From the NCBI GenBank assembly GCA_049903315.1, contig JBNGBT010000007.1, positions 6,561-70,560 of the forward strand: a stretch of DNA of 64,000 bases. The letters run 5' to 3'. The notes below the pieces were generated by a model. The model saw only the letters and a list, made by a program, of their open reading frames with translations. It was not told where the DNA came from and searched no databases. Positions 8,649 through 59,584 of the stretch are shown in pieces. The DNA comes from Candidatus Cloacimonadota bacterium. GTDB taxonomy: Bacteria > Cloacimonadota > Cloacimonadia > JGIOTU-2. Position 1 is the stretch's first letter; every line of letters starts with the position of its first letter. Position numbers and translations under genes: made by a program.

Positions 8649-8649
8649 A

Positions 8650-13618: not shown

Positions 13619-13630
13619 TGGTTAAAAAGT

Positions 13631-13705: not shown

Positions 13706-13717
13706 ATTTCTATAAAT

Positions 13718-13809
13718 GGCGGAGAGGCAGGGATTCGAACCCTGGGTAAGATGTTACTCCTACACACGCTTAGCAGGCGCGCACCTTAAGCCAACTCGGT
13801 CACCTCTCC
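13718..13809 (-). tRNA. tRNA-Ser (anticodon GCU)
   Basis: Reverse complement GGAGAGGTGACCGAGTTGGCTTAAGGTGCGCGCCTGCTAAGCGTG...GGTTCGAATCCCTGCCTCTCCGCCA; class II tRNA with a long variable arm; anticodon loop CTGCTAA. Confidence 0.85.
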
Positions 13810-13822
13810 AAAAAGAACAAAA

Positions 13823-13908
13823 TGGCGGAGGATGAGGGACTCGAACCCCCAAGGGCAGAGCCCGGCGGTTTTCAAGACCGCTGCCTTACCAATTAGGACT
13901 AATCCTCC
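13823..13908 (-). tRNA. tRNA-Ser (anticodon UGA)
   Basis: Reverse complement GGAGGATTAGTCCTAATTGGTAAGGCAGCGGTCTTGAAAACCGCCGGGCTCTGCCCTTGGGGGTTCGAGTCCCTCATCCTCCGCCA; anticodon stem GCGGT/ACCGC, loop CTTGAAA, long variable arm. Confidence 0.85.
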
Positions 13909-20918: not shown

Positions 20919-21195
20919 TATATTTTGTTTATCTAATCTTTTAATAAATTTGACAAATAGGAATCTTATTTTCAATATTGGAAATGCTTATAAATAAATT
21001 AGTCTTTATATCTAAAAAAGATGAGGTTATGGTAAAAAAAGAAAATGCTATGTTAATGTCTAAGTTAGGCTTAAAACCAGTTTTATCTCATCACTTATTG
21101 GCTGGTTATACCCCCGAGGGGAACTTTATTCACTTCTATGCGAGGTTATTTATTATGTTAACGAAATCTGATTTATTAAAATCGGAGGAGACGGT

Positions 21196-27695: not shown

Positions 27696-27710
27696 GAGAA
27701 TCGTAATAAT

Positions 27711-28106
27711 ATGAAAAAAATAAAAATATTAATTGCAAAACCTGGCCTTGATGGACATGACAGGGGAGCGAAATTTGTTTCTCAAGTCCTCAGGAATGCC
27801 GGTTATGAAGTCATATATACAGGCATTCGTCAAACACCAGAACAAATAGTCACTTCTGCGATACAAGAGGACGTAGATTTTCTTGGAATGAGTATCCTGT
27901 CCGGTGCACATAATGTGCTCTTCAAAAAAGTTATGGATATCCTCCGAAATGAAAATACGGATGATATAATTGTGTTTGCCGGGGGCGTTATACCTGAGGA
28001 TGATATACCGTATTTGAAATCGCTGGGTATCAAAGAAATTTTCACGCCCGGAACCTCTTCGAAAAAAATAATTGAATTTATTGAAAACAATGCATCAAAA
28101 GAGTAA
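27711..28106 (+). CDS. Cobalamin (B12)-binding small subunit of acyl-CoA mutase
   Basis: 131 aa; DxHxxG motif (LDGHDRGAKFV) and Rossmann-like B12-binding fold signature. Confidence 0.85.
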   Translation: MKKIKILIAKPGLDGHDRGAKFVSQVLRNAGYEVIYTGIRQTPEQIVTSAIQEDVDFLGMSILSGAHNVLFKKVMDILRNENTDDIIVFAGGVIPEDDIPYLKSLGIKEIFTPGTSSKKIIEFIENNASKE

Positions 28107-32617: not shown

Positions 32618-35422
32618 GTGAAAGTTTGTAGTAAATTTGGACTATTACTTTTGATGTTCATGCTGCTACTGGTGAGTTCTGCATTTGGGATATTGCTTCC
32701 CAATAATGAACCTGTTGAAGGGCTGAGAGTTGAAGATGTTCCTCATGATGATGGTGGAGGGCTCATGCTGAGCTGGAAGCCTCTCCCAAAAGAAAAGCGC
32801 ATCATTGAATACCGTATTTACCGCGGCTATACTCCCGATAGTTTATTCTATATCGGAAAGATCCCGGTAGATGCCAAAACAGGTGTTGCAGCTGATACAA
32901 TGAGATATATTGATCAGGGTTGGACATTTTTTGTCGATGCAACCTCACATGCCAAGCTGAAACATGAAAAGGGGCAGAAAAAAGGAACAATAGGAGCAGA
33001 AGTGCTCTTTCGTACCGTTCCTCGTGACATGAAAATCTATGGTCCTATGATGGATCATTATCGCATGCTTGCCGTTATCCCTGATAAAGAATATGTTTAT
33101 CACACGAAGATGAGAGAGTTCACTGATATTGATACAACTGAGGATGGCACTATTGATACGACATCTACGATTCTTGCAGGAATGAAACTTGAGCAGGTCA
33201 AGTATATTCTTACTAAACTGACAGTTGGTAAAGACTATTATTATGCAATTCAAGCACTCAATATGAACCGTAGTGCATCACCTCTTTCTGAAATAGCAAC
33301 TGGACAAACGGTCGATGATCCTCCAGAAAAATTAAAAGAATTCTATGCAGTTGCTGTGACCGATAAGGAGCAGCTTCAGTTCGAATGGTCGTTGCCAGTA
33401 TTTACTTCCGACCAAAAACAATTTAATATTTACCTTTATGATGAATTCGATGATCAGCATCTTATATTTACCCGTCCGGATGCATATCCATACACTCCCC
33501 AGACCAATGCTATTGTTCCTTTCGATTCTATCGCAGCACGTTTTGAAGCATTTAATTCCGCAAATATGAAGTGGTATAAATTCAATATCGGAGAACAGGA
33601 TAGACAGGATCAGGAAACCCTTGCAAAAGATGAACCTATCCCAGCTGAAATCATCACTTCTTCTATGCTGCCCAAACCTCCTATTCATTTCACCGTAAAA
33701 GATCAGCCAAATGATAAAGGTGATCAATTGCAGGTTTTCTTTGGATATCCATATTATGGTCTTTCAAAATTATCCTATAATGATGCTTTTACAAAACTGA
33801 CGGTTAATTATTTCATTACTGAAAATTCCATGTACGAAGTAGACCGACTTATCCTTTCAATCAATGGAATAACGAAAACTGAATATGTGCTTGATAATAA
33901 ACTCGATTTCAAGGTCAATTGGGATTATAGTAAGCCAATGAAGATCACAGGAAGTTTTGTCTGTAAACATAAAGGACAAGCACCCTTACCGGAAGATTAT
34001 ACAATAACTCATACCTTTATTTTTGATCAGGAAATGCAGGTGGTCCTCGTTGACACTCCTCCTAATGAGCAGATGAAGGAATTTGAAGATTATTACTTCC
34101 AAGTTTACAAGATAAATCATACAAGTGATGTGTATAGATATGCAAAACAGATGTCTTTTAGAGAGCGGGAATATATAGATAAAGTGTCATATGAAACCGT
34201 TCAATTTCGTGGAAGACCCCGTTTCTCTCTCGAAGAAAAGCGACTTTATTTCAGTACATATTTAAGCATTGAAAATTATAAAGATCAGTATCCCTTCTAC
34301 ACTCAAGCGCTCTATCTCGATCAACTCAAACAACAGGATGAAGAAATTAAAGAAGAAATCGCAAAACTACAAGCAGAGTTAGAAACCGAAACTGATAAAG
34401 TAGAGATAGAGAAAATTGAAGATCGTATAGATCTTTTCACTGATTATCTTAATGAAAAACCAGCGATCGTCAAAGAAGCAAATCTCTTAAATACTGATAA
34501 AGAAAGAATGAAAATGCTCTATGATGTTCATTGCAAAAATATTCGTTCTTTCAAATATTATATCAGAAAGACTGACGGACGAGGGCACTTTATCGATACT
34601 CCTGTATATACAGATCCTAATGGCGAACAGTATATCTCTCCCAAACAGAATTGGTTCAACACTGATGAAATAATCACTTTCATTGCAGTGCTTTTATTTG
34701 GAGCGCTCGTGTACTTTATGATCAAAGCAGCGCGCAAAGGAAAGAGGTTATATATCAGACCTATCGCAGGTATTCAGGAGATTGATAATGCGATTGGACG
34801 AGCTACAGAAATGGGAAGACCAATCCTCTTCGTTCCAGGTTTAAGCGGCATCAGTGACGTGGCAACACTTGCAGGATTAGCGATTCTTAGCAAAGTTGCG
34901 AAGAAAGCTGCTGAATACGACACAAAAATACTCGTTCCATGCCGCGATTTCATCGTACTTCCTATTGCTCAGGAAACTGTAAAAGAAGCACACTATGAAG
35001 CTGGTCGTCCTGATACGTATGATAAAAACAGCGTATTCTTCATCACACAAGCACAGTTCGCTTTTGTAGCTGGTGTGAACGGCATAATGATTCGTGAAAA
35101 AACAGCAACGAACTTCTATATGGGAATGTTCTGGGCTGAATCTCTTCTTATGACAGAAACCGGAAGTATGACAGGTGCAATTCAGATTGCTGGAACTGAT
35201 GCAGTCAATCAGCTGCCTTTCTTCATCACAACATGTGACTATACTCTTATTGGCGAAGAACTCTATGCAGCAAGCGCTTATCTCTCAAATCAACCGCTGA
35301 TTCTTGGTACTCTCAAAGCTCAAGACTATATGAAACTGATTATTGTTCTTACCGTGATCCTTGGCACTATCCTCTCAACTGTTCACCTTACGTTCTTTAT
35401 GAACTGGTTCCCGACCAAATAG
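32618..35422 (+). CDS. Hypothetical large envelope protein (signal peptide, FN3-like region, C-terminal TM segments), 934 aa
   Basis: GTG start with RBS AAAGGAG; signal peptide; hydrophobic segments near the C-terminus; no family recognised. Confidence 0.55.
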   Translation: MKVCSKFGLLLLMFMLLLVSSAFGILLPNNEPVEGLRVEDVPHDDGGGLMLSWKPLPKEKRIIEYRIYRGYTPDSLFYIGKIPVDAKTGVAADTMRYIDQGWTFFVDATSHAKLKHEKGQKKGTIGAEVLFRTVPRDMKIYGPMMDHYRMLAVIPDKEYVYHTKMREFTDIDTTEDGTIDTTSTILAGMKLEQVKYILTKLTVGKDYYYAIQALNMNRSASPLSEIATGQTVDDPPEKLKEFYAVAVTDKEQLQFEWSLPVFTSDQKQFNIYLYDEFDDQHLIFTRPDAYPYTPQTNAIVPFDSIAARFEAFNSANMKWYKFNIGEQDRQDQETLAKDEPIPAEIITSSMLPKPPIHFTVKDQPNDKGDQLQVFFGYPYYGLSKLSYNDAFTKLTVNYFITENSMYEVDRLILSINGITKTEYVLDNKLDFKVNWDYSKPMKITGSFVCKHKGQAPLPEDYTITHTFIFDQEMQVVLVDTPPNEQMKEFEDYYFQVYKINHTSDVYRYAKQMSFREREYIDKVSYETVQFRGRPRFSLEEKRLYFSTYLSIENYKDQYPFYTQALYLDQLKQQDEEIKEEIAKLQAELETETDKVEIEKIEDRIDLFTDYLNEKPAIVKEANLLNTDKERMKMLYDVHCKNIRSFKYYIRKTDGRGHFIDTPVYTDPNGEQYISPKQNWFNTDEIITFIAVLLFGALVYFMIKAARKGKRLYIRPIAGIQEIDNAIGRATEMGRPILFVPGLSGISDVATLAGLAILSKVAKKAAEYDTKILVPCRDFIVLPIAQETVKEAHYEAGRPDTYDKNSVFFITQAQFAFVAGVNGIMIREKTATNFYMGMFWAESLLMTETGSMTGAIQIAGTDAVNQLPFFITTCDYTLIGEELYAASAYLSNQPLILGTLKAQDYMKLIIVLTVILGTILSTVHLTFFMNWFPTK

Positions 35423-43628: not shown

Positions 43629-45980
43629 TTATGGTGAGGTTAGTTTCACTATCTTCCTCACAACCGCAGTATCTTCAAACTCAAGTGAACAAAAATACAC
43701 TCCTGGTGCAGTGATGTTCCCATCCATATCCTTGCCATACCACACTATTTCATTTATTGCCCAGAAATGCTCATCTGGTCCGTAAAACCTTCGTACAAGC
43801 TGTCCTCGAGAATTGTAGATTGAAACCTGGTATTCTCTCACTCTGTCATAATCCAATGATGTAAAAGAAATTGTTGTTTGATCTTTGAAAGGATTTGGGG
43901 TGTTCTTAAAGAAATACAGGTTATTTACCACATTCGTATCTGGATCTACACTGTATCCCTGCCATTCCAGAGCTCCCATGTCGATTCTTCCTCCATAAAT
44001 ACGAGGATTTCCTGCAACATCCACCCAGGGAAGATGCAATCCGGTTGTATCCGGTGTGCCTGCATCGATACAGGGAGAAGTGCTCGATAAATAATAAGGA
44101 TAATCTCCCGTACCTGTAAACTGTGGATAATCATCGATATTTCCGTCCAGCCAGTTTACGATATTAGCATTGTGCTCATTCCAAACACCATCTTCTCCAT
44201 TTTTAATATCATTGTATTGAAGATTGAGTGTTGATATGATCCCATAATTGGATAAATCCCACACAAATATCTCAGCAGGTGTATTGTCGTTCCACATAAT
44301 ATTATTAGATATCTCGACATTTCCTCCTACAGTTAAAGCTGCTCTTTGTGCCTCATTCCCAGAAAAAGTATTATTGGTGATGAAAACATCTCCCATTGGA
44401 TCGGTCGATGAACACGACATAATAGACACCGACGGTGTTGAATTATTAGAAATAACTGAATTTCTTACTTCTAATGTAGGATTGCAGAATTGGTCATAAC
44501 TGAGTATAAACAAAGTAATATCTGCATTATTATTACTATTATTATCGAAAATACAATTTTTTATTTTTCCATATTCATGTGCATTTATCTTTAAGATAAA
44601 TGAAAAAACACCATGCGAATAGTTATTCGAAAAAACACAATTTTCTATCTTCGCATTATATTTCCAATGTAATATACTATTTACCCAATTGGTTTGAATA
44701 TTATTAAACAACAAATTTTTATATAATACTGAATCAGAGTAATTTATATAAAAAATGCTTCCATTTTCGCATATTATATCATTAAACTTTAAATTCTCAA
44801 ACTTATAATTTTTATTTTTTCCCTTTGAGGAATAAATTACATTATTGATAGTACATTCTGCCCAAAAAGTAAAATTTATAATACTTATATTTTTTTTCAT
44901 ATTTGTAGAAAAGACCGTTGTCGAAAAAAAATCATCGTCATGTATAATCTTCGTATCGATATTCTCACCAATGAGTGATGTATTGCTTTTCATAGATATC
45001 GGAAATAACTGGTCATTAATAATTTTTGAATAAATCCCTTCTGCCACATGAACCACCTTCGGACTTAAGCTGTCATTTGCAATTCGATAGGTCGCCAATG
45101 CAATAGTTTTTAAAGGATCATCTGGTGACAATCCGCTGTTATTGTCATCACCGTCTGGGGCAACATACAAATCGTGGTTTATCTCTTCCATCCATACGTT
45201 TTGAATATCAAATAAAAATTCACCCGAATATCCATAATTACAAATGTATTCTGCAAAATATCCATCTGGATTAAATACAGTAAATGTATCTACAAAAACA
45301 TGCACTTTACATGAATCATACGCATACATATCCTGTCCTAAACCAGCATGATTATTATAGAAATTGCATAAGTTATTAGGATCAAAAATAGGTTTAGCAG
45401 AAAAATCAAATATTCCCCCCCCAACGTTTGCATAATTTTGCCTCATTGTTACGCCAGATAAATAGATTGGAAATATGTTGTGAGGAACACCGCCAGCAAA
45501 TATCCCACCTCCTTCACATGCAATATTTTCTTTTATTATACAATTAATTACATTCAGTTCAGTATCATCCGCATACCAATTTGATACCAGTATACCCCCT
45601 CCTCTTGAGAAATATATTGGCCATACTGTTCCTTTACCATTAGTAATAGTAAATCCTTGTATTACTGCATTCTCATTGTTTAATACTGTTACACAACTCC
45701 CTGATCGGTCTCCATCGATTATTGTCGAATCAATAAATACCTTATTTCTAGTTGTGAGTTCTAAACTCGCTAATGTAATACTATGCCCGTTAAAATTTAC
45801 ATTCTCGATATATCTCCCGGGATATACTAAAACAACATCTCCATCTACAGAATTGTCTATTCCATCCTGAATAGTTAAATAATCCCCTGTACCGTCAATA
45901 TCGACGGTTATTGTATCTGAATATATATCTGAGAGTATAAGAATTATAAGTAATATTTGTAGTAATATTATTTTTTTCAT
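43629..45980 (-). CDS. Right-handed beta-helix repeat protein with T9SS C-terminal sorting domain, 783 aa
   Basis: Signal peptide; many NxxGGGI-type beta-helix repeats; PCIDAGTPDTTGLHLP...RIDMGALEWQG; C-terminal CTD (TPNPFKDQTTISF...GVYFCSL). Confidence 0.75.
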   Translation of the reverse strand: MKKIILLQILLIILILSDIYSDTITVDIDGTGDYLTIQDGIDNSVDGDVVLVYPGRYIENVNFNGHSITLASLELTTRNKVFIDSTIIDGDRSGSCVTVLNNENAVIQGFTITNGKGTVWPIYFSRGGGILVSNWYADDTELNVINCIIKENIACEGGGIFAGGVPHNIFPIYLSGVTMRQNYANVGGGIFDFSAKPIFDPNNLCNFYNNHAGLGQDMYAYDSCKVHVFVDTFTVFNPDGYFAEYICNYGYSGEFLFDIQNVWMEEINHDLYVAPDGDDNNSGLSPDDPLKTIALATYRIANDSLSPKVVHVAEGIYSKIINDQLFPISMKSNTSLIGENIDTKIIHDDDFFSTTVFSTNMKKNISIINFTFWAECTINNVIYSSKGKNKNYKFENLKFNDIICENGSIFYINYSDSVLYKNLLFNNIQTNWVNSILHWKYNAKIENCVFSNNYSHGVFSFILKINAHEYGKIKNCIFDNNSNNNADITLFILSYDQFCNPTLEVRNSVISNNSTPSVSIMSCSSTDPMGDVFITNNTFSGNEAQRAALTVGGNVEISNNIMWNDNTPAEIFVWDLSNYGIISTLNLQYNDIKNGEDGVWNEHNANIVNWLDGNIDDYPQFTGTGDYPYYLSSTSPCIDAGTPDTTGLHLPWVDVAGNPRIYGGRIDMGALEWQGYSVDPDTNVVNNLYFFKNTPNPFKDQTTISFTSLDYDRVREYQVSIYNSRGQLVRRFYGPDEHFWAINEIVWYGKDMDGNITAPGVYFCSLEFEDTAVVRKIVKLTSP

Positions 45981-46037
45981 TACGATCCTTTTTTATAAAG
46001 GGTGCACCACACAAGTGATGCACCCTCACTGTTTGTG

Positions 46038-48785
46038 CTATCTCATCAACAGCAGCTTTTTAACAATATCTTTTTCGGAAGTAGATAATTTGTAGAAATA
46101 TACTCCATTTGGTACGAGTTTTCCCTGTTCGTCTGTTCCATTCCATGTAACTGAATGAATTCCGCTTGATTGCTCGCCATCCTTAAGTGAGGTAACGTAT
46201 TGACCTTTACAGTTATAGATCGATAGATTAATCTTGACCTGATCCGGTAATGAATACTTTATCGTAACGTTATTACATACGGGATTGGGAAAATTCATAA
46301 TTTTGTAATCAGGGGGAGTAAATGAATGTTCTCCATTTGTAAGAGAAACCATATAATAATCTTTTACTCCGTCTATATGAACAGTTCCTTGATGTAACTC
46401 CATTGAGACCGGATCGTAGGTGTAGTAATCCACTACTTTTATATTTCCTGCTTTACCACCATAATACATTTCGAATGTCATATCTCCTGAAGTGCCGTCA
46501 TTCATGTATGCACGGATATCCATCTCATCATTGGTTACAATTTCCGCTCCCTTGCATACATCATCTATATATACCGCTACTTCAAGAGGTAGCTCTTCAG
46601 GATCGAGTTCAACGTAGATGGGTATATAGTCCGCTTTCTCTTCAAAATCGAAATTCTGTGCTTTTCCTCTCTCTTCAGGAGGTTCGCCTCCACCCGTATA
46701 ACTCCATACAAAATCTTCATCTTCAAAGCATTTTACTACAACACAATCTCCATAATTCAGAACTCTTCTATCTTGAGGTCTCACCCAGGGGCTTTCCGGT
46801 TCAGGTTCTTCTCTCTGGTATGTCCAATTTTGCGTCTGTATGAAGTACATATTATCTATTGAGTTCTCAAAAGCGTCATTGACATCCTGTGTTTCGTCGA
46901 TGAAATACCCGATCCAATTTTCGAGATTGTCTGCCACTAAAGGTATTTCAGTATCAGGATCTGCCAGAAATCCGGGCACATCGATCGTGACTGGCTCTTC
47001 ATTCAGCATCTTGAATTTGTAACCCTGTCTGCTGGTGAAAATATGTTCTTTATTTTCCCAATCTCCCTGATAATAATAAATCATATTTAAATCCTCAGGA
47101 TCTCCAACGGTTCGCCAAAAACAGGTATCAAGATTTGTTTGAGCAGGATTTATTATATCATACAATAAATATTGAGCCATATCCCCAACATAATCTTTTG
47201 CATCGGTCAGTGTGTCGAGTACAGGATAACACATCCACCGCCATTCATAGCCATATATTGGCAGATCCCAATCATTCCATTGGTGTGTAATTGCAGGAAG
47301 AGCGCCCATGTCAGAGGGGGTTCCATCGGTATCGTTGTATAAGGAATCAGGATTGCCGGTATCTATGCACGGAGAAAAACCGTTCACATCCCATTTCAAT
47401 GAATAGTCACTACTGTCTGGTTTGTTGAATTTAGGATTCACTTCTAGACATCCATCACCTTCAATAACTCCAGAATAGTTATTAGAATCATTTCCATGGG
47501 AATTACAATATATTACTTCAATTTGCGTTTCACTTACAATTCCCGTTTCATTATTAGCTACAATATTATTAAAGATAATATCATTATTATTCCCAGAAGT
47601 TGAGCAAATATAAATTCCAGATTCATTTTCATTATTCACTATTGTGTTGTTTATTACTTCAATATCAGTAACATTATAACCTAAACAAATAGCACCACCA
47701 TCATCTCCTGAACCATCCATAATAATATTATTACTAATTACTACTTCATCGCATTCTACTCCAATGGCACTTGCATAAGAAAAAGTAGATGATCCGGCTC
47801 CCATTGTATTACCAATAAATTCATTTCCTATTATTTCTGCTCCTTCATACCATCTAATTGTTACAGCTCCACCAGTTTCCGATGAGTTATCTTCAAATAG
47901 ATTGCTGTGAATGTATCCACCATCTAATATTGCTCCGCTATAACCTCCCCAATCTATTTCATCATCTACTGCAGTAGATGAACATCGTCTTACTGTGTTA
48001 CACTCGATTGACGAACCACCGTATATTCCAGCACCTCCCCAACCTTCTGTTTCACAATCTTCTATAGTATTTTCATACACAATGGCTTGAACTGCATATA
48101 TCCCCCCACCTTCATTGGCAGAACAATCAGAAATTGTATTATAGCTTATGGTCATATCCTCATGTGTAGCCCAAATACCGCCACCTTTCCCAAAGTAATT
48201 ATTTTGGGTTGATGTGCAATGCTCGATAGTGTTGTGTGAAATTAATCCGGGGGAATCGATTGATATACCTCCTCCATTGCGATATTGTTCAGTACAATAA
48301 CAACTATCAATATCATTATATGTGATAAGACAGTAATCGCAGTCATTGATAAATATACCGTGACTATTACAGTTTTTTATTACATTATTATAAATCAATA
48401 AACCTGAACTTTCTGTACATAATATTCCAATATTAAAGTTATTTAAAGTAAAACCAATTATCTTATCCTGAGGATATTCAGTCTCAGCTTCATCTAGATC
48501 AAAAGCAGTTTCGGTTCCGGTACCTTGTATTATACAACTATCAGCTCCATTCTGAGATGTAACTGTAATATTTTTCTCTGTTCCATCCCAGTATAGGTTT
48601 ATGTTATTAGCACCAGTATATATTCCGTCCTTAACAAGAACGATGTCACCATCATCTGCTGCATTTATACCAGCTTGTATTGTGAGATAATCTCCACCGC
48701 CATTGCAATCTACTACTATTGTATCAGTAAATCCTAATGCTGATATTAACAGTATAAATACTGCTATCACAATTATTTTTTTCAT
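46038..48785 (-). CDS. Right-handed beta-helix repeat protein with T9SS C-terminal sorting domain, ~915 aa
   Basis: ATG at 48785 preceded by AGGAGA; signal peptide; beta-helix repeats; C-terminal CTD (FPNPVCNNVTIKY...GVYFYKL). Confidence 0.75.
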   Translation of the reverse strand: MKKIIVIAVFILLISALGFTDTIVVDCNGGGDYLTIQAGINAADDGDIVLVKDGIYTGANNINLYWDGTEKNITVTSQNGADSCIIQGTGTETAFDLDEAETEYPQDKIIGFTLNNFNIGILCTESSGLLIYNNVIKNCNSHGIFINDCDYCLITYNDIDSCYCTEQYRNGGGISIDSPGLISHNTIEHCTSTQNNYFGKGGGIWATHEDMTISYNTISDCSANEGGGIYAVQAIVYENTIEDCETEGWGGAGIYGGSSIECNTVRRCSSTAVDDEIDWGGYSGAILDGGYIHSNLFEDNSSETGGAVTIRWYEGAEIIGNEFIGNTMGAGSSTFSYASAIGVECDEVVISNNIIMDGSGDDGGAICLGYNVTDIEVINNTIVNNENESGIYICSTSGNNNDIIFNNIVANNETGIVSETQIEVIYCNSHGNDSNNYSGVIEGDGCLEVNPKFNKPDSSDYSLKWDVNGFSPCIDTGNPDSLYNDTDGTPSDMGALPAITHQWNDWDLPIYGYEWRWMCYPVLDTLTDAKDYVGDMAQYLLYDIINPAQTNLDTCFWRTVGDPEDLNMIYYYQGDWENKEHIFTSRQGYKFKMLNEEPVTIDVPGFLADPDTEIPLVADNLENWIGYFIDETQDVNDAFENSIDNMYFIQTQNWTYQREEPEPESPWVRPQDRRVLNYGDCVVVKCFEDEDFVWSYTGGGEPPEERGKAQNFDFEEKADYIPIYVELDPEELPLEVAVYIDDVCKGAEIVTNDEMDIRAYMNDGTSGDMTFEMYYGGKAGNIKVVDYYTYDPVSMELHQGTVHIDGVKDYYMVSLTNGEHSFTPPDYKIMNFPNPVCNNVTIKYSLPDQVKINLSIYNCKGQYVTSLKDGEQSSGIHSVTWNGTDEQGKLVPNGVYFYKLSTSEKDIVKKLLLMR

Positions 48786-49053
48786 TATTCTCCTTATTTT
48801 CTGTGAACACATTAACTCTCAAAAGAGAAGCCCATAATTATTATCCCTAACATCATAATCAGCCCAGTCTGCGAAAGCAACTCTCATATTCCGATAACCT
48901 CACTATTCCCGGGAAACGGAATAGTAAGGTAGGAATTAAGGAATTTATTTTTCCCGAGAATTGATAATGTTGTATTTGTGTTGTATTTTGCCTTATTAAA
49001 ATATGCCAAATTGTAGTAACTTGCATAATATATGTCAGTTACTAAATTCAAAT

Positions 49054-49261: not shown

Positions 49262-51484
49262 ATGAATCTGGAAATCACAGATAAACTCGTAAAAGAACAT
49301 GGTCTTTCAAAAGAAGAGCACACACGCATCCTATCGATTTTAGGACGAGATCCCACAATAACTGAACTCGGAATTTTCTCTGTTATGTGGTCTGAACACG
49401 CCAGTTACAAGAATTCAATTCTACAACTGAAAACTCTTCCGCGATCCGGTGAGTGTCTTCTTAAAGATGCAGGTGAAGAGAATGCCGGTGTGGTCGATAT
49501 TGGAGACGGGCTTGCCGTTGCGTTCAAGATCGAGAGTCATAATCATCCTTCTGCACTGGAGCCATACCAGGGTGCAGCAACGGGAGTTGGAGGTATTCTC
49601 AGGGATGTTTTTACCATGGGTGCGCGTCCAATTGCATCGTTGAATTCACTTCGCTTCGGTTCGCTGGATAATCCTCATGTAAAGCATCTTCTCAAAGGTG
49701 TGGTAAAAGGTATTGCAGATTATGGCAACTGCATGGGCATTCCAACGGTTGCCGGAGAAATTTATTTCGACGACAGCTATGAAGGAAATCCGCTTGTAAA
49801 TGCGATGACAGTCGGGACTATCAAGCATGAACATATTGCGACAGCTGCTGCGTACGGTGTGGGAAATTACGTCCTGTATGTCGGATCATCAACAGGAAGA
49901 GACGGCATTCATGGCGCAACGTTTGCATCGGTCGAACTGACTGAGGAATCTGCAGAAAAGCGAACTTCCGTGCAGGTAGGGGATCCGTTCATGGAAAAAC
50001 TTCTCCTCGAAGCCACCCTCGATGTGATCAAGCAAAACCTCGTTGTGGGCATACAGGATATGGGAGCTGCCGGATTGACCTGTTCGTCATCGGAAATGGC
50101 TGCCAAAGCAGGAACCGGAGTGGATATCGATGTCTCACTCGTGCCCAAAAGAGAAAAGGGAATGACACCTTATGAGATCATGCTCTCGGAATCACAGGAG
50201 CGCATGCTGTTGGTTATCGAACCTCAAAACTTCAAGAAAGTTCAAGAAATATATGAGAAATGGGATCTGCATGTCGTGAAGATCGGCGAAGTGACTGAGA
50301 ATGGAAATCTGCGTGTGCGCGAAAATGGCATTATTGTTGCTGATATACCAGCCCAAACACTTGTACTCGGTGGTGAAGCTCCGGTTTATAACCGAGAAGT
50401 GCAATATCCATCATATCTGGATTCTCTCCATTCCTTTGATCAAGCAAAAATCAAGGAACCATCGGATTATAACGAAGTTTTAAAACGACTTATTTCATCA
50501 CCGAATATTGCAAGCAAAAATTATGTTTACACACAGTACGATCATATGGTGAGGATAAATTCAGTGATCGAACCTGGTTCAGATGCGGCAGTTGTAAGAA
50601 TAAAAGTTACAAACAAAGCACTTGCAATGACCACAGATTGCAATGGAAAATATTGTTATCTCGATCCTTATGAAGGAACAAAGGGAGCTGTTGCAGAAGC
50701 AGCACGGAATATTGTATGCTCAGGTGGAAAACCTCTTGCCATTACGAATTGCCTGAATTTTGGAAACCCCTATAAAAAGGATGTTTATTGGTATTTTTCA
50801 GAATGTATCCGCGGCATGGGGGATGCATGCAGATTTTTCAAAACGCCGGTAACAGGTGGTAATGTCAGTTTCTACAATGAAACTGTGAAGAGCGCCGTGT
50901 ATCCAACACCGGTTATTGGCATGATCGGACTTCTTGATGATGTAAAATACGCGACATCTCAATATTTTAAGGATACGGGAGATGTGATCTTTCTCTTGGG
51001 AAAATCCTGTGATATTATTAGCGGATCAGAATATCTGGAAGTTGAGCATCATATGATCGTCGGACATGCACCTAAAGTAGATTTCGAATTGGAACAAAAA
51101 ATCCAGGATATTTGTTATGAAGCTATTCGAGAAGGAATCGTAAAATCTGCGCATGATTGTTCTGAAGGTGGACTTGCAGTTGCTTTAGCCGAATCCTGTT
51201 TTAATCCGGATGGATTACTTGGAGCTCATATCAATATGGAATTCGTGAATCGCACCGATTTCGGACTTTTTGGCGAATCTCACTCGCGAATTATCGTGTC
51301 TGTCGAAGAAAAAGATATTCCTTCCTTTGTTCGAATAATTAAAAAACATGATGCTCCTTATAAACTCCTAGGAAAAGTTACTGATAAGAAATTTCAAATA
51401 AATGACCTTATATCGTCTGATACCAATGAGTTATATGAGCTATGGCACAATGCCATTCGACTAAAAATGGAGTCAGTTACATGA
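49262..51484 (+). CDS. purL: Phosphoribosylformylglycinamidine synthase subunit PurL
   Basis: 740 aa; AIR-synthase-related tandem domains ([35 protein letters not shown]); TGA stop. Confidence 0.93.
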
Positions 51485-53024: not shown

Positions 53025-54320
53025 ATGATTTCACGATATACATTACCGGAAATGACTCAATTGTGGAGTCTTGAAAACAAGTTTCAAACCTGGCTGAATG
53101 TCGAGATCGCAGCTGCTGAAGCCATGAACAAACTGGGATTAGTTCCCGAAACTGATCTGAAAAACATTCAACAGAAAGCACGGTTCAAGGTTTCTGAAAT
53201 TAACGAAATTGAGAATGAAGTTCATCATGATGTCATTGCCTTTCTGACAAATGTGGCTGAGTATGTAGGTCCTTCCGCACGCTATATTCATCTTGGCATG
53301 ACATCTTCAGACGTAATCGATACAGCAAATTCACTCTTGATGAAACAAGCAGGAGAAATAATACTGGCCTCAATCAAATCTTGTATGAATGTGCTCAAAC
53401 AGAGCGCTTATAAGTATAAAGATACCCTCTGCATAGGGCGTTCACACGGCATCCATGCTGAGCCAACAACTTTCGGACTGAAATTTGCACTGTGGTATGA
53501 TGAAATGCACAGAAATCTGATTCGCTGGGAAAGAGCAATTGAAACAATTTCAGTTGGGCAAATTTCGGGTGCTGTTGGTAATTATGCCCACCTTTCTATG
53601 GAAGTGGAAACGTATGTATGTAAAAAACTTGGACTGAAACCGGTAAATATTTCCACACAAGTCATACAAAGAGACCGTTATTCTGAATATTTGTCATCTA
53701 TAGCAATCATAGGAAGCACACTCGAGAAGATCGCACTTGAAATACGGCATCTCCAGCGTACTGAGGTGCATGAAGTAGAGGAAAATTTCTCAAAAGGACA
53801 AAAAGGTTCTTCTGCAATGCCGCATAAGAAAAATCCGATAATTGCTGAACGTATCTGCGGTCTTGCACGTATTCTGCGAAGTAATGCAATGACGGCTTTC
53901 GAGAATAATGCACTCTGGCATGAACGTGATATCAGCCATTCCTCTGCTGAAAGAATAATAATTCCTGACTCAACTTCGCTGATTCATTACTTACTATTTA
54001 AAACAATTGCGCTTATTGAAAATCTTGTAGTGTTTCCCGAAAAGATGGCTGAAAATATAGAACTCACACATGGATTGATTTATAGTCAGTCGGTGCTCCT
54101 TGCACTTGCTCAAAAAGGTATCTCGCGAGAAAAAGCTTATGAAATCGTGCAGAAAGCTGCAATGGAATGCTGGAAGACAAATGAAGATTTTAAAGATATT
54201 TTGATGAGAAATAATGAATTTAACTCCTCTATGAGCAAAGATGAGATTAACTCAATATTCAGTATGGATAAATTTTCCGATAATGTCGATGCGATATTTT
54301 CCAGAGTATTTGATATGTAG
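53025..54320 (+). CDS. purB: Adenylosuccinate lyase
   Basis: Fumarate-lyase signature GSSAMPHKKNP and overall PurB layout. Confidence 0.92.
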   Translation: MISRYTLPEMTQLWSLENKFQTWLNVEIAAAEAMNKLGLVPETDLKNIQQKARFKVSEINEIENEVHHDVIAFLTNVAEYVGPSARYIHLGMTSSDVIDTANSLLMKQAGEIILASIKSCMNVLKQSAYKYKDTLCIGRSHGIHAEPTTFGLKFALWYDEMHRNLIRWERAIETISVGQISGAVGNYAHLSMEVETYVCKKLGLKPVNISTQVIQRDRYSEYLSSIAIIGSTLEKIALEIRHLQRTEVHEVEENFSKGQKGSSAMPHKKNPIIAERICGLARILRSNAMTAFENNALWHERDISHSSAERIIIPDSTSLIHYLLFKTIALIENLVVFPEKMAENIELTHGLIYSQSVLLALAQKGISREKAYEIVQKAAMECWKTNEDFKDILMRNNEFNSSMSKDEINSIFSMDKFSDNVDAIFSRVFDM

Positions 54321-54453
54321 GAGAAATATTATGAATTATGAAATAAATAAAAAATTAATAAATCCAATTTTCCGAGATTTTCGCCTGCCTCGGCGTAATG
54401 CAATGGAGACGGGTGTTTTTCGTGGTTAAATTTATTAATATGTAGGAGTAAAT

Positions 54454-54702
54454 GTGCGAAAAGCAACCATATATGTCACACTAAAACCGGAAGTGCTCGA
54501 TCCGCAGGGTAAGGTTATTATGAATGCCCTGCATACACTTGGATATAATAATGTTACTGAAGTTCGTGCAAGTAAAATGTTCGAATTGACAGTAAAAACT
54601 AAAAAAGGTGCTGACATCGCAAAAGAAATTGATGAGATCTGCGATAAAGTCCTGGCAAATCCAAATATTGAGACTTATCGATACGATATACATGACGAAT
54701 AA
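54454..54702 (+). CDS. purS: Phosphoribosylformylglycinamidine synthase subunit PurS
   Basis: 82 aa, PurS-like (VTLKPEVLDPQGKVI); GTG start preceded by TAGGAG. Confidence 0.85.
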   Translation: MRKATIYVTLKPEVLDPQGKVIMNALHTLGYNNVTEVRASKMFELTVKTKKGADIAKEIDEICDKVLANPNIETYRYDIHDE

Positions 54703-54739
54703 TGTAACTCAATCGAAATCGGCAATTTAGAGTTAAAAT

Positions 54740-55432
54740 ATGAAGTATAATATAATTATTTTCCCCGGCTCAAACTGCGACTATGATGCATATTTTGTGA
54801 CGAAAAATCTTATGAGCGATGAAGTGGAATATGTCTGGCATAAGAACACAGCCCTCAAAAATCCGGACTGCATAATCATACCCGGTGGATTTTCTTATGG
54901 AGATTATCTTCGCGCCGGTGCCATTGCAAAGTTCAGTCCTATTATGAAAGAAGTTATATCCTTTGCAAAAAAAGGTGGTTTGGTTATCGGTATTTGTAAT
55001 GGATTCCAAGTTTTAACAGAGACGCAACTACTACCGGGAGCACTCCTACAAAACAAATCACTTCTTTTTATTTGTAAACATCAATTTGTACAAGTAATGA
55101 ATACCTCAACACCTTTTACGAATGCAATGAAAGTAGATACCATTCTGGATATTCCCATTGCTCATAATGAAGGAAATTATTTTATTGATCCAGACGGGCT
55201 GAAATCATTGCAGGATAACCAGCAAATCGTGTTCCAGTACTGCAACAAAAAAGGTGATGTAAATGATACTTCAAATCCCAATGGTTCTCTTCTTAATATT
55301 GCAGGCATAGTGAATAGGAAAGGCAATGTCCTCGGTATGATGCCGCATCCCGAACGCACCTCCGATCCGATTTGCGGTGTTACAGATGGTCAGCAGATTT
55401 TCCTCTCTATTAAGAAATTTATTGAGAAATGA
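54740..55432 (+). CDS. purQ: Phosphoribosylformylglycinamidine synthase subunit PurQ (glutaminase)
   Basis: GFSYGDYLRAG, catalytic Cys in ICNGFQVL, HPER. Confidence 0.9.
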   Translation: MKYNIIIFPGSNCDYDAYFVTKNLMSDEVEYVWHKNTALKNPDCIIIPGGFSYGDYLRAGAIAKFSPIMKEVISFAKKGGLVIGICNGFQVLTETQLLPGALLQNKSLLFICKHQFVQVMNTSTPFTNAMKVDTILDIPIAHNEGNYFIDPDGLKSLQDNQQIVFQYCNKKGDVNDTSNPNGSLLNIAGIVNRKGNVLGMMPHPERTSDPICGVTDGQQIFLSIKKFIEK

Positions 55433-56124
55433 ACATACTGAACTCTCTATCCAATCTTTTCTTTCCCAATCAATGTTTTTCCTGTAATAAACGAATCGAG
55501 AATTCATCTTTGCTCTGCGAACAATGCCTGGAAGATCTCATTCAGATGCCAAATAACACATGCACTTTCTGTAATAATGATACAATACATAGTCTCATTT
55601 GCGAAGAATGCAAAAAGGAATATCCTTTTGATGAAGTGGTGTGTGCGTATACATTTAACCTGCCTATCCAACGAATGATACATCATTTCAAATATAATGA
55701 ATTCAAAAAGATTGGAGCGTATCTTGGAGCTGAGCTTGCCGAACTTATTTCATCTTATTCATTCATAACTGAGACGGATTATATCATCCCTGTTCCACTT
55801 CATAAAACAAAGAGAAGATTCCGCGGATTCAATCAAGCTGAAATAATAGCAAAAGCATTATCTGTGAAATTGGATATCCCTATTTTAAAAAATGTGCTGA
55901 GTAGAAAAAAATTTACACAAACACAAACACAATTAAAAAAACATGAACGTGAGAAAAATGTTGCGAACGCATTTCATGTAAAAAATATTGGCACTATTAA
56001 AAATAAATCTCTTTTATTAGTTGACGATGTTTTGACAACTGGATCAACTATGAAATCAATCGCACTTTTATTAAAGAAAAATTTTGCGAAGCATATTTAC
56101 GTATGCACATTAGCGAGAGCGTAA
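55429..56124 (+). CDS. comF: ComF-family phosphoribosyltransferase-domain protein
   Basis: N-terminal Cys clusters (CFSC...CEQC, CTFC...CEEC) plus PRTase motif LLVDDVLTTGSTM; overlaps the purQ stop. Confidence 0.8.
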   Translation: MNILNSLSNLFFPNQCFSCNKRIENSSLLCEQCLEDLIQMPNNTCTFCNNDTIHSLICEECKKEYPFDEVVCAYTFNLPIQRMIHHFKYNEFKKIGAYLGAELAELISSYSFITETDYIIPVPLHKTKRRFRGFNQAEIIAKALSVKLDIPILKNVLSRKKFTQTQTQLKKHEREKNVANAFHVKNIGTIKNKSLLLVDDVLTTGSTMKSIALLLKKNFAKHIYVCTLARA

Positions 56125-56127
56125 AGC

Positions 56128-56490
56128 ATGGCAGATGTTATAGTAGAAGTTTCAAAAGATGATGCCCATGAATTAATGGACAGAACGGCAAAATTCATTG
56201 CTGAAAGACGCATGGGTTCTGCTGCGATTTTATTAATAGAATCACTAAAGCCGTTGAATTTTATTGCGAGCCAGATCCTCTATATGATCGCTCCTTTTGC
56301 AGAGCTCATATTTAAGCCGGAAGAATATCAAAAATTTGCATGTTCCCTTGAAAATAGAGATAATGTAAAATATCTTATCAATAAGATTGACGAAGAGGAT
56401 GCAAATTTCCATAGAGAGTTGAAAGCTGAAAAGAAAAAAGCAAAAGAATTGAAAAAGAAGAAAAAATTATTAAAAAATAAAGTGAAATAA
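56128..56490 (+). CDS. Hypothetical protein (120 aa, Lys-rich tail)
   Basis: Tightly packed between comF and the GlmL-like gene; no family recognised. Confidence 0.4.
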   Translation: MADVIVEVSKDDAHELMDRTAKFIAERRMGSAAILLIESLKPLNFIASQILYMIAPFAELIFKPEEYQKFACSLENRDNVKYLINKIDEEDANFHRELKAEKKKAKELKKKKKLLKNKVK

Positions 56491-56502
56491 ATCGGAGGAA
56501 AT

Positions 56503-58401
56503 ATGGCAAAAGAGCTACGTTCAATATTGGCTACCGACTGTGGTAGCACAACAACGAAAGCCATATTAATTAAGAAAATCGATGATGTATATCGTTTGAT
56601 CGTACGAGGTGAAGCACCAACAACAGTGGAAGCTCCCTTTGATGATGTGACAAAAGGTGTTCTGAATGCGGTCGAAGAAGTTCAGGACCTCGTTCATATT
56701 CGAGGAGAAAAAGATAGGTCTATCATCAAAGATGAAACAATAGAAGTACCTCAGGATGGCGATAAAGGTGTTGATGCATATGTGTCTACGAGCAGCGCCG
56801 GTGGGGGACTTCAAATGATGGTTGCCGGCGTCGTAAAAAGCATGACTGGTGAAAGTGCAGAACGTGCAGCACTCGGTGCAGGAGCTATTGTTATGGATGT
56901 GCTTGCAAGCAATGACAAGCGCCTTCCTCACCAAAGGATCGAAAGAATACGGCATCTGCGTCCCGATATGATACTTCTGTCAGGAGGTATCGATGGGGGA
57001 ACGACCAAGCATGTGGTCGAACTCGCAGAGATTATTGCTGCTGCAGATCCCAAACCCCGTCTTGGATCAGAATACAAATTACCAGTCATCTATGCGGGAA
57101 ACAAGGACGCTCGTGATGCAGTGAAAGAGACACTGGGGAGCAAGGTCGATCTTATCATAACAGATAATATCCGACCTGTGCTTGAAAGAGAAAATCTCGG
57201 ACCTGCGCGTGATAAAATACACGATCTTTTTATGGAGCATGTGATGGCTCAAGCGCCAGGATACAAAAAGCTTATGGCTTGGGCGAGGGCAGAAACAGAA
57301 AACGGAAAAATCGAAGAAGTGCCTATCATGCCTACACCTGGAGCTGTCGGAAACATCATGCAGACAATTGCGCGGCTGGAAAACATCGAGGTCGTGGGTG
57401 TGGATATCGGCGGAGCTACAACTGATGTCTTTTCGGTGTTCTCTGAGGATAAAGTATTCAACAGAACAGTAAGTGCAAACCTGGGAATGAGTTATAGTAT
57501 TTCAAACGTGCTCGCTTCGACAGGTATAAAAAATATTTTACGCTGGGTGCCTTTCGATATTCCGGAAACTCAACTGCGTAATATGATCAAAAATAAAATG
57601 ATCAGGCCTACCACGATTCCTTTCCTTGCAGAAGAACTTATGCTGGAACAGGCAATCGCAAAAGAAGCGCTTCGTCTTGCTTTTGAACAGCATAAAGAAT
57701 TTGCCGTTACTCTGAAAGGCACACAGAGAGAAAGAGAAATTTCTGAAGCATTCTCGCAATCAACATCAGGTGAAACAATTGTAAATATGATGACTCTTGA
57801 TATATTGGTTGGCAGCGGTGGTGTACTTTCTCACGCACCTCGAAGAAACCAGTCTGCGATGATGATGATCGATGCATTTCTTCCCGAAGGCATCACACGC
57901 CTTGCGGTTGATAGTATATTCATGATGCCGCAGCTTGGTGTACTGTCAACGATCAGTGAAAAGGCAGCACAAGAAGTATTTGAAAGAGATTGTCTTATCC
58001 ATCTAGGAACCTGCATCGCGCCAAAAGGTAAGTATAAACAAGGTAAAACAGCGCTTAATGCGAGGATCGAACTGCCAAATGGAGAGATCTACGAAGAGAG
58101 TATCCCGTTTGGAGAGATCGTCAGATTGAATCTTGGTGTTGGTGAAAATGCAAAAGCAATTTTAAAACCATCAAGTGGATGCGATCTTGGTACAGGGAAG
58201 AATACTGAAGTTGAAACTACGATTTCTGGTGGTGTTGTTGGTATTATTATTGATACTCGCGGAAGAGAATTGTATTTTGATGAAAAGCTGAACAAAGAAA
58301 CAATGAGCGCTCATATTCCATCGGATAATGCAGCACGAGTCGAATCGTTGAAAAAGTGGATGAAAGCTCTCGAAGTCTATCCCCAAGAATGGTTATCATA
58401 G
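56503..58401 (+). CDS. GlmL/MutL-family (hydantoinase-like ASKHA) ATPase, 632 aa
   Basis: RBS GGAGG; ILATDCGSTTTKAI and VDIGGATTDVFS phosphate motifs; paralog of the N-terminal two-thirds of 8650-11556. Confidence 0.75.
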   Translation: MAKELRSILATDCGSTTTKAILIKKIDDVYRLIVRGEAPTTVEAPFDDVTKGVLNAVEEVQDLVHIRGEKDRSIIKDETIEVPQDGDKGVDAYVSTSSAGGGLQMMVAGVVKSMTGESAERAALGAGAIVMDVLASNDKRLPHQRIERIRHLRPDMILLSGGIDGGTTKHVVELAEIIAAADPKPRLGSEYKLPVIYAGNKDARDAVKETLGSKVDLIITDNIRPVLERENLGPARDKIHDLFMEHVMAQAPGYKKLMAWARAETENGKIEEVPIMPTPGAVGNIMQTIARLENIEVVGVDIGGATTDVFSVFSEDKVFNRTVSANLGMSYSISNVLASTGIKNILRWVPFDIPETQLRNMIKNKMIRPTTIPFLAEELMLEQAIAKEALRLAFEQHKEFAVTLKGTQREREISEAFSQSTSGETIVNMMTLDILVGSGGVLSHAPRRNQSAMMMIDAFLPEGITRLAVDSIFMMPQLGVLSTISEKAAQEVFERDCLIHLGTCIAPKGKYKQGKTALNARIELPNGEIYEESIPFGEIVRLNLGVGENAKAILKPSSGCDLGTGKNTEVETTISGGVVGIIIDTRGRELYFDEKLNKETMSAHIPSDNAARVESLKKWMKALEVYPQEWLS

Positions 58402-58410
58402 GAGGTTCAC

Positions 58411-59535
58411 ATGGCACAAGCATATACTCCCGGATTGACAATAACAAAAAGTATTATTCTGAGAAAAGATAGAATCCTTCCTCTCAAAGGTGAAGTTGTG
58501 GTAAAAGTAGGGGACAAGGTCACTGCAGATGACAATGTCGCAAAAACCGATTTACCAGGTGACGTTATCGCAATCAATATCGGCAATAAACTCGGAGTCC
58601 CGCCCTCTGATGTTTTGTCAAAAATGCAGAAAAAAGAAGGTGAAAAAATAAAAAAAGATGAACCTCTCGCAATGAGCCAGAGTATGTTCGGTCTTTTTAA
58701 ATCTATTGTGAAATCACCGATTACCGGCACAGTCGAGAATATTTCGAGTATCACAGGACAAGTTCTTCTTCGAGAACCTCCGGTCCCAATAACCGTGAAA
58801 GCATTTATTGATGGCGTCGTCAGCAAGGTTTATGAAAATGAAGGCGTCCAGATAGAGAATAAATCTGCCTATATACAGGGAATCTTCGGCATTGGTGGTG
58901 AGATTACTGGTGAAATCAAAGTTCTTGTTGATGGACCAGATGCCGAACTCCTGCCTGAACAGATTGATAATTCATGTAAGGATAAGATCATAGTGGGCGG
59001 TTCTATGGTGCGCCTGCCGGCTATTAAGAAAGCAATTCAAGTTAATGCAAAAGGCATTGTTATAGGCGGTATTGATGACCAGGATCTTAAAGACCTGCTT
59101 GGCTATGATATCGGTGTTGCAATAACCGGACATGAGGAGATTGGGTTGACTCTCGTTCTCACAGAAGGTTTTGGCCCAATTAAAATGGCTGCAAAAACGT
59201 ATGAAATATTAAAAGAATTCGAGGGTTATAAGACTTCCATGCACGGCAAAACCCAGATCAGAGCCGGTGTGATGAGACCAGAGATAATTATTCCAATTCC
59301 ATTTAAAGAAGAAGAGTTGAAAGCCAAAGAGAAAGAAATCTCAGGACTGAAAATTGGTAGTATAATTCGAATTATCCGAGAACCTCATTTCGGAGAGATC
59401 TGTGAAGTGACGGCACTTCCCGAAGAACTTGTTGTAGTTGAATCTGAAACAAAAGTGCGTGTACTCAAGGCAAAAATGGACGATGGCATTGAAGTTACAG
59501 TTCCACGTGCAAATGTTGAAGCTATTGAAGATTAA
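58411..59535 (+). CDS. Partner protein of the GlmL-like ATPase (homologous to the C-terminal third of the 968-aa fusion)
   Basis: RBS GGAGG; shares VLTEGFG and GKTQIRAGVMRPEII with the C-terminus of 8650-11556. Confidence 0.65.
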   Translation: MAQAYTPGLTITKSIILRKDRILPLKGEVVVKVGDKVTADDNVAKTDLPGDVIAINIGNKLGVPPSDVLSKMQKKEGEKIKKDEPLAMSQSMFGLFKSIVKSPITGTVENISSITGQVLLREPPVPITVKAFIDGVVSKVYENEGVQIENKSAYIQGIFGIGGEITGEIKVLVDGPDAELLPEQIDNSCKDKIIVGGSMVRLPAIKKAIQVNAKGIVIGGIDDQDLKDLLGYDIGVAITGHEEIGLTLVLTEGFGPIKMAAKTYEILKEFEGYKTSMHGKTQIRAGVMRPEIIIPIPFKEEELKAKEKEISGLKIGSIIRIIREPHFGEICEVTALPEELVVVESETKVRVLKAKMDDGIEVTVPRANVEAIED

Positions 59536-59556: not shown

Positions 59557-59584
59557 AAAGGGCACCGTCGAGTGCCCTTTTTTA
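59557..59584. terminator. Rho-independent terminator between convergent genes
   Basis: AAAGGGCAC-CGTCGA-GTGCCCTTT hairpin followed by a T-run. Confidence 0.65.

Follow-up and report, generated by a model that had tools for sequence, protein, structure and literature searches.

Two groups of accessory ATPases offer the closest described parallels to the locus considered here. GlmL and Or-4 are named in NCBIfam as accessories of cofactor-dependent amino-acid mutases, and the diol and glycerol dehydratase reactivases (DdrAB and GdrAB) are built from an Hsp70-like ATPase, a swivelling domain and a small subunit that can dissociate, and work by a subunit swap (PMC7674605). The locus in question lies at positions 55429-59535 of a 64,000-nucleotide stretch of contig JBNGBT010000007.1 from a Candidatus Cloacimonadota bacterium (assembly GCA_049903315.1, positions 6,561 to 70,560 of the forward strand), the whole of which is referred to as the window. 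It encodes a 120-aa protein (p120), a 632-aa ATPase of the ASKHA superfamily (p632) and a 374-aa partner subunit (p374), a module for which no descriptive paper was found in the literature. The paralogy of this locus with a fused gene elsewhere in the window is by itself ordinary; its interest is that of a deeply conserved and mis-annotated module of three or four genes. The reading favoured here, tentatively and with a probability of about 40%, is that the module forms an ATP-driven complex that serves an unlinked cofactor enzyme as an accessory or 'activase'.

The initial annotation had described a comF gene followed by genes for the 120-, 632- and 374-aa proteins, closely spaced and closed by a terminator, and this layout is borne out. 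The purQ and comF genes overlap by 4 nt, and the following junctions measure 3 nt (comF/p120), 12 nt (p120/p632) and 9 nt (p632/p374), with GGAGG ribosome-binding sites upstream of both p632 and p374. The hairpin at the end of the operon has 9-10 pairs (5 of them G-C) followed by a T-run, lies 22 nt past the p374 stop codon, is readable on both strands and is common to the convergent TldD/PmbA gene. The features of the module are as follows.

56128 to 56490, plus strand: p120 gene, encoding the 120-aa Lys-tailed protein with the C-terminus KAEKKKAKELKKKKKLLKNKVK.
56503 to 58401, plus strand: p632, the 632-aa ASKHA ATPase of the Pfam MutL/GlmL family.
56770 to 57168, plus strand: flavodoxin/CheY-like α/β domain (about residues 90-222) inside ASKHA subdomain I of p632.
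57994 to 58317, plus strand: all-β domain at the C-terminus of p632 (about residues 498-605), with two helices after it.
58411 to 59535, plus strand: p374, the 374-aa partner subunit.
58432 to 58935, plus strand: N-terminal β-rich region of p374 with barrel-sandwich-hybrid motifs (lipoyl/biotinyl-like and RnfC/NqrA-N-like); hairpin tip GLF.
58936 to 59298, plus strand: swivelling β/β/α domain of p374, with the invariant motifs GVAxTGxE, TEGFG and TQIRAGVxRP.
59356 to 59532, plus strand: C-terminal KOW/SH3-like barrel of p374, missing from the fused paralog.
59557 to 59580, strand unspecified: bidirectional intrinsic-terminator-like hairpin closing the operon.

When the four operon proteins were compared with the window by tblastn, a single other locus was found.

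8650 to 11556, minus strand: fused paralog of 968 aa, with a GlmL-like ASKHA ATPase and its β domain, a linker, and barrel-sandwich-hybrid and swivelling domains.

The ATPase p632 matches Pfam MutL (PF13941) at 419.9 bits over residues 8-497, which is above the gathering score, and its nucleotide-site motifs are intact (phosphate-1 DCGSTTTK, phosphate-2 DIGGATTD and adenosine GSGGVLSHAP). In the AlphaFold model (predicted local distance difference test, pLDDT, 84.0; predicted template-modelling score, pTM, 0.78), an ASKHA core carries the inserted α/β domain, with its invariant Gly-rich loops TSSAGGGLQ and SGGxDGG, and the C-terminal β domain, which lies past the end of the Pfam MutL model and is weakly common to the fused paralog (DTRGR/DTRFR). 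Score, motifs and actin-like ATPase fold thus agree in making p632 a member of the Pfam MutL/ASKHA grouping. The curated NCBIfam models give a different result, as p632 and the fused paralog score 214.4 and 214.5 bits against the GlmL equivalog NF040745 (cut-off 475 bits), 164.4 and 152.6 bits against the glmL_fam model TIGR01319 (cut-off 204.05 bits), and 200 and 184.8 bits against the Or-4 model NF040744 (cut-off 600 bits). In addition, no mutase gene adjoins the module, and none of the gene families that recur beside 80 loci is a mutase; these loci were fetched from a p374 family with at least 586 matches among species-representative genomes, and scanned by tblastn with the window proteins. 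The description 'GlmL-like' given to the locus at first therefore holds at the level of the Pfam family but not at that of the three curated GlmL cut-offs or of an adjacent mutase, and p632 represents a deep branch of the GlmL/MutL family that is conserved in its own right.

That p632 is a genuine GlmL, or reactivates a B12-dependent mutase, for instance the split methylmalonyl-CoA mutase at 26052-28106 (plus strand) of the window, is considered improbable. Such an assignment would accord with the 420-bit MutL score, with the source annotations 'glutamate mutase L' and 'methylaspartate mutase', and with the resemblance of the inserted p632 domain to B12-binding and flavodoxin folds; moreover, a B12-dependent acyl-CoA mutase is present in the same window with no MeaB-like gene adjoining it. 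This split enzyme (MM_CoA_mutase, 786 bits, then a 131-aa B12-binding subunit with 82.7 bits and the motif DGHDRG) is the only mutase in the window, and lies 28 kb from the module. It is followed by a beta-eliminating lyase gene and an aconitase-family gene.

The partner, p374, has more than 8000 homologs in the databases, nearly all of them unnamed or listed as 'hypothetical protein', and is without a Pfam or NCBIfam family. Its AlphaFold2 model (pLDDT 86.7) consists of barrel-sandwich-hybrid, swivelling β/β/α and KOW-like domains, and the fold matches of the swivelling domain are rifampin phosphotransferase, RraA, Enzyme I and the small subunit of AcnX. Sequence and profile searches with p632, p374 and p120 returned no solved-structure match apart from weak ones to lipoyl and biotin carboxyl carrier proteins. 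Since p374 is fused to the ATPase in the paralog, and the two genes are 9-16 nt apart in almost every genome, the gene arrangement indicates that p374 is an obligate partner, physically and functionally coupled to the ATPase.

Domains of the kinds found in p374 can carry a covalently bound group, and two such roles were considered. The Lipoyl/biotinyl family (PF00364) gives p374 a score of 22.1 bits, exactly at the cut-off; a function as a lipoylated or biotinylated carrier was rejected because there is no invariant modifiable Lys at the β-hairpin tip. The tip is formed by G94-L95-F96, the nearby K97 and K101 are variable, and the nearest Lys column, at position 90, is near-conserved but reads Q in p374 of the window and R in the homolog at locus L079; indeed, no Lys, His or Cys is invariant among the p374 homologs. 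Homology of the barrel-sandwich-hybrid domain to H-protein was likewise set aside, as the hhalign probability of 0.95% is not significant. A function as phosphohistidine carrier appears unlikely, as H241, the sole near-conserved His of p374, is S, T or N in other phyla and N in the paralog. The position that aligns with the GG-x-T-S-H loop reads GG[IFLV][DNS]DxDL, an equivalence judged by eye, without model coordinates.

The third component, p120, has no Pfam, NCBIfam or PDB match, yet is a real and widespread protein family, represented by 856 cluster representatives at E<=1e-3. Its N-terminal helix is followed by a conserved core of moderate hydrophobicity (residues 28-64, ...IESLKPLNFIASQ...PFAE...), and its tail is rich in Lys and Arg; the last 35 residues have a median net charge of +11, and the maximum Kyte-Doolittle hydropathy is 1.48. 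Whether the 120-aa protein has counterparts beside other members of the family had been raised as a question at the outset, and the answer is positive for the split type: in at least five phylum-level lineages, p120 is found in synteny on the upstream side of the ATPase. No p120-like protein was found next to or within the fused paralog of the window or those of loci L081-L084; as a third component, p120 belongs to the split form alone. In the protein P0445, p120 is fused to an additional C-terminal region of about 230 aa.

Outside Cloacimonadota, a fourth protein, termed C1 (about 155-200 aa), frequently accompanies p120. C1 combines a transmembrane hairpin with a conserved NGVLLSPF..RPSRLENFRG domain, belongs to no Pfam family, and is directly upstream of p120 in five loci that carry the p120-ATPase-partner triad (L062, at 4377-4847, and L068, L071, L076 and L079). 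A metagenome scan with a Zixibacteria-type p120 alignment yielded 80 further loci (L085-L164), in 65 of which C1 immediately precedes the p120 homolog (for instance at L101:7465-8465), and one protein, P0428, is a natural fusion of C1 and p120. Most of these metagenomic C1-p120 pairs follow pth-rpsF-rpsR-rplI, with no ATPase or partner gene within 8 kb. No C1 homolog was found in the window or in Cloacimonadota.

The distribution of the split module is wide. The nearest genomes are NIOZ-UU3 and Ca. Celaenobacter, and p374 is found at 52-56% identity in Poribacteria, Fermentibacteria, Aegiribacteria, Latescibacterota, Edwardsbacteria and UBP2. The genes for p120, ATPase and partner are contiguous in nearly all Cloacimonadota, as well as in Fermentibacteria, Aegiribacteria, Edwardsbacteria, UBP2 and unclassified lineages, and Zixibacteria-type loci have the same gene order with a gap. 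Poribacteria (L063-L065, L069, L070, L074, L075, L078 and L080) encode a full-length partner of 53-55% identity with no ATPase or p120 within 7 kb. No gene recurs downstream of the module in the 80 loci. Judged from sequence, the conservation of the module across several phyla is housekeeping-like. A role in anti-phage defence was rejected on account of this conservation, and of the lack of any PADLOC match for p120, p632, p374 or the fused copy.

Genomic context adds a striking link. All triad loci of the genome scan from outside Cloacimonadota and Poribacteria border glycine-cleavage or lipoylation genes. For instance, gcvT-gcvH-gcvPA-gcvPB-C1-p120-ATPase-partner form one tightly packed string in L062 (2-8125), L068, L071 and L076, whereas in L079 only gcvT-gcvH are directly upstream; in L066 the module has gcvPB upstream and a LplA/LipB-family ligase gene downstream, and a ligase gene of this kind is also downstream of the module in L056, L058 and L073. 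Such linkage is unlikely to be due to chance because the loci span about five deep lineages. The Cloacimonadota loci and the window contain no match to gcv or lplA genes, and the module in the window is embedded in a purine cluster. Purine synthesis uses up glycine and one-carbon units, and the purine setting may thus be a thematic link to glycine and one-carbon metabolism. A specific version of the accessory role is doubtful as it stands: it would make (C1)-p120-ATPase-partner a hitherto unrecognised ATP-dependent machine serving the glycine cleavage/synthase system or, more generally, glycine and one-carbon metabolism. Here, the barrel-sandwich-hybrid domain, devoid of a lipoyl-lysine, would dock onto the P-, T- or H-protein, much as DdrB mimics a subunit of its client. 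If this were true, GlmL-family proteins would in general be ATP-driven 'activases', serving cofactor-dependent amino-acid enzymes.

The gcv- or lplA-linked loci showed no lpd gene, which raises the idea that the module is a redox device replacing L-protein (dihydrolipoamide dehydrogenase), with a flavin bound in the flavodoxin-like insert and a ferredoxin docking on the SH3-like domain. The absence of lpd from the module-linked gcvT-H-PA-PB operons would be explained in this way, as would the fold matches to flavodoxin, to NqrA/RnfC-N and to NdhS/PsaE. These three folds are all generic, however, and neither a conserved Cys nor a recognisable flavin/NAD motif nor a redox Pfam match is present; no electron-carrying function is known for ASKHA ATPases lacking Fe-S clusters. 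A redox function is accordingly rated as very improbable.

The same context is open to an enzymatic interpretation, in which the module is an ATP-dependent enzyme resembling hydantoinase, oxoprolinase or acetone carboxylase. In this scheme, phosphorylation of a small substrate or of bicarbonate would be the task of the ASKHA subunit, the barrel-sandwich-hybrid and swivelling domains of the partner would serve as mobile carriers or as catalytic domains, like those of phosphoenolpyruvate (PEP)-utilising enzymes and biotin carboxylases, and the module might feed the glycine synthase/cleavage reaction. The top full-length Foldseek matches of p632 are acetophenone carboxylase (E 2e-10), N-methylhydantoinase and the β subunit of acetone carboxylase, but the TM-scores to the carboxylases are just 0.26-0.30. 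Secondary Pfam matches to Hydantoinase_A and Hydant_A_N point in the same direction; the first reaches 20.9 in p632, under the cut-off of 22.9, and 33.4 in the fused copy, where it spans just 55 of 291 profile positions. Invariant polar motifs and conservation at the level of a metabolic enzyme are consistent with catalysis, swivelling and barrel-sandwich-hybrid domains are classic carrier modules, and the module lies in the gcv operon of several lineages. In the window and in close relatives, an acylphosphatase gene also runs across the stop codon of the fused gene, a link that is absent from more distant genomes. Against an enzyme stand the lack of a Hydantoinase_B-type partner in the operon, the variability of H241 and the lack of any invariant His or Cys in the partner, and the replacement of K90, the sole near-conserved Lys near the hairpin. 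On balance an enzyme seems unlikely, although it is the most probable of the alternatives.

The accessory or 'activase' reading draws its support from the intact nucleotide-site motifs, the fusion and tight gene coupling of ATPase and partner, the synteny of p120, the conservation of p632 and p374 between phyla, and the linkage to C1 and gcv genes. It also draws on the parts list shared with the reactivases (ATPase, swivelling domain and a small, ~14-kDa subunit) and on the accessory naming of GlmL and Or-4. As proposed, p120, p632 and p374 would form a three-subunit, ATP-driven ASKHA machine, often joined outside Cloacimonadota by the membrane protein C1. ATP binding and hydrolysis in the ASKHA cleft would reposition the swivelling domain of the partner, whose invariant TEGFG and TQIRAGVxRP motifs are the candidate contact surface. 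The complex may thereby act as a nucleotide-switched accessory, either a chaperone or an 'activase', by analogy with what has been proposed for GlmL and with the dehydratase reactivases. Tethering or localisation of the complex would fall to p120, by virtue of its hydrophobic core and basic tail; in genomes that encode C1, the site is probably the membrane, reached via C1. The gene for the client would lie elsewhere. Gene context makes the glycine cleavage/synthase system, with its pyridoxal phosphate and lipoyl-H protein, the best candidate, a B12 mutase being an alternative client.

The split operon and the fused gene share ancestry, as the initial annotation had proposed on the basis of five common motifs, and they do so across the whole ATPase and the partner core. 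Residues 6-507 of p632 align with residues 5-496 of the fused protein at 39% identity (E 2e-120), and residues 53-294 of p374 with fused residues 733-966 at 31% identity (E 4e-36). The similarity is not restricted to the generic ASKHA phosphate motifs, as identities between p632 and the fused protein occur in every 50-residue block (8-30 per block over residues 1-600, and 2 of 18 aligned positions in the last, partial block). Four of the five motifs occur in both copies; STSSAGGGLQ is found in p632 alone, the fused copy reading TTSSAGGGLQ. The fused protein lacks the final ~80 residues of p374 and has no KOW domain, and many fused homologs (P0138-P0185) are about 1040-1060 aa long and end in a Zn_ribbon_2 domain (PF12674) where p374 has its KOW-like barrel. 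The end module of the partner and fused proteins is interchangeable.

The two paralogs are ancient, because split-type ATPases are 60-71% identical between phyla yet every fused ATPase is only about 36-43% identical to every split one, regardless of phylum. Both types share large contigs, including one of 783,864 bp that carries all three window proteins, and in another case the fused copy is at 0.11 Mb of a 3.10-Mb contig while the split locus L049 is at 2.58 Mb, apparently on the same chromosome. Given the distance between the copies in this case, significance of their proximity was rejected, and the spacing of about 45 kb in the window is incidental. Two claims made at the outset are affected. 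The closeness of the two copies, from which sub-functionalisation had been suggested, is incidental, although the long-term retention of both paralogs would fit distinct roles. The label of 'second copy' is better given to the fused gene, as the split operon is the widely conserved form.

The neighbours of the fused gene are an acylphosphatase gene (PF00708, 92.8 bits; 8376-8663, minus strand), which overlaps its stop codon by 14 nt, and two sugar-type ABC permease genes directly upstream (11596-13526); the string contains no gene for an ABC ATPase. Directly upstream of it, four tRNA genes are clustered (13548-13908, minus strand). The order of acylphosphatase, fused and permease genes recurs in the Celaenobacter-like relative L084 but not in the more distant L081-L083, and a general functional link was rejected as the neighbours are kept only in close relatives.

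Upstream of p120, the window contains the following genes.

53025 to 55432, plus strand: co-directional purB, purS and purQ, upstream of comF.
55429 to 56124, plus strand: ComF-family protein of 231 aa, with an N-terminal double zinc ribbon and a type-I phosphoribosyltransferase domain; phosphoribosyl pyrophosphate (PRPP) loop LLVDDVLTTGST.

The co-directional string begins at purL (49262-51484) and continues through lgt, a lipoprotein gene, purB, purS, purQ and comF, with purA located beyond TldD. The ComF protein scores above the Pfam cut-offs for Pribosyltran (41.4 bits) and DZR_2 (35.2 bits); it thus resembles the ComF/ComFC (GntX) family in its double zinc ribbon and its phosphoribosyltransferase domain with PRPP loop, but differs in scoring 123.7 against TIGR00201 comF, under the cut-off of 233.55, and in that its adjacency to the module is confined to Cloacimonadota. 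In the 80-locus set, comF is directly upstream of p120 in 47 loci, all from this phylum, where 27 loci have purQ upstream, 25 purS and 18 purB. The operon is therefore comF-linked here, as had been noted, but the linkage is a Cloacimonadota-specific gene order, and comF is a lineage-specific neighbour outside the module proper. Another idea is that the ATPase is an FtsA/PilM-like membrane scaffold, recruited to the membrane by p120 and cooperating with ComF in taking up DNA or in some other process of the envelope. PilM binds PilN and FtsA binds FtsN, and p120 would be the counterpart of these binding partners; such a scaffold is considered improbable. The ComF-family protein also matches the phosphoribosyltransferase toxins PsyrT (E 1e-15) and ShosT (E 1e-14) in PADLOC, which reflects shared homology of the phosphoribosyltransferase domain, there being no defence partner genes nearby. 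Elsewhere, the window encodes several large secreted proteins with type IX secretion system sorting domains (Por_Secre_tail) at 17013-24045 (plus strand) and 43629-48812 (minus strand), together with a 1301-aa C25 (gingipain-like) peptidase, and a 934-aa DUF6754 protein at 32618-35422.

The module matters in the first place for annotation. Named members of both ATPase families are labelled 'glutamate mutase L' or 'methylaspartate mutase', although the two copies in the window fall below the curated thresholds and no mutase is adjacent, and such labels can falsely imply glutamate fermentation in metabolic reconstructions of Cloacimonadota and related candidate phyla. In addition, p374 and p120 represent two widespread families without a Pfam or NCBIfam model, and C1 is a third family-less protein of the wider module. 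The natural fusion, the small third subunit and the repeated linkage to gcvTHP together provide a concrete lead into the function of GlmL-type proteins.

Compared with known systems, p632 shares with GlmL/MutL and Or-4 the Pfam family over residues 8-497, the ASKHA core, the inserted α/β domain with Gly-rich loops and the intact ATP motifs. It differs in falling below every curated cut-off, with less than half of those for GlmL and Or-4, in carrying an extra C-terminal β domain (~130 aa), and in having a dedicated partner of barrel-sandwich-hybrid, swivelling and KOW domains as well as a p120 subunit. Furthermore, the module is never next to a mutase, whereas GlmL genes are expected beside glmS/mutS and glmE/mutE, and it occurs in FCB-type candidate phyla, either stand-alone or gcv-linked.

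With DdrAB and GdrAB the module has in common an ASKHA/Hsp70-like ATPase, a swivelling β/β/α domain and a small subunit of ~120 aa, and the ATP-driven conformational switch demonstrated for the reactivases (PMC7674605) is proposed here by analogy. However, the swivelling domain of DdrA is inserted in the ATPase chain, whereas here it is a separate protein, or appended in the fused paralog. DdrA is no closer a fold match to p632 than are other ASKHA proteins, so that p632 does not qualify as a reactivase α subunit; the hydrophobic core and basic tail of p120 do not suggest a mimic of a dehydratase β subunit, and no dehydratase genes are near the module in the 80-locus neighbourhoods.

Hydantoinase A, oxoprolinase and the acetone and acetophenone carboxylases, which perform ATP-dependent activation chemistries, are the best full-length structural matches of p632 (Foldseek E 2e-10 to 1e-7), with the weak Hydantoinase_A and Hydant_A_N matches in addition, but the module differs from them in the missing Hydantoinase_B-type partner, in TM-scores of about 0.3 and in its other accessory domains. 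The swivelling β/β/α fold of p374 is that of the phosphohistidine domains of PEP-utilising enzymes, of RraA and of the AcnX small subunit; p374 differs from the PEP-utilising enzymes in having neither a conserved phospho-acceptor His nor a PEP/pyruvate or ATP-grasp domain. Of all these systems, the module works most like the GlmL/reactivase class of ASKHA accessories, while being a member only of the broad Pfam MutL family.

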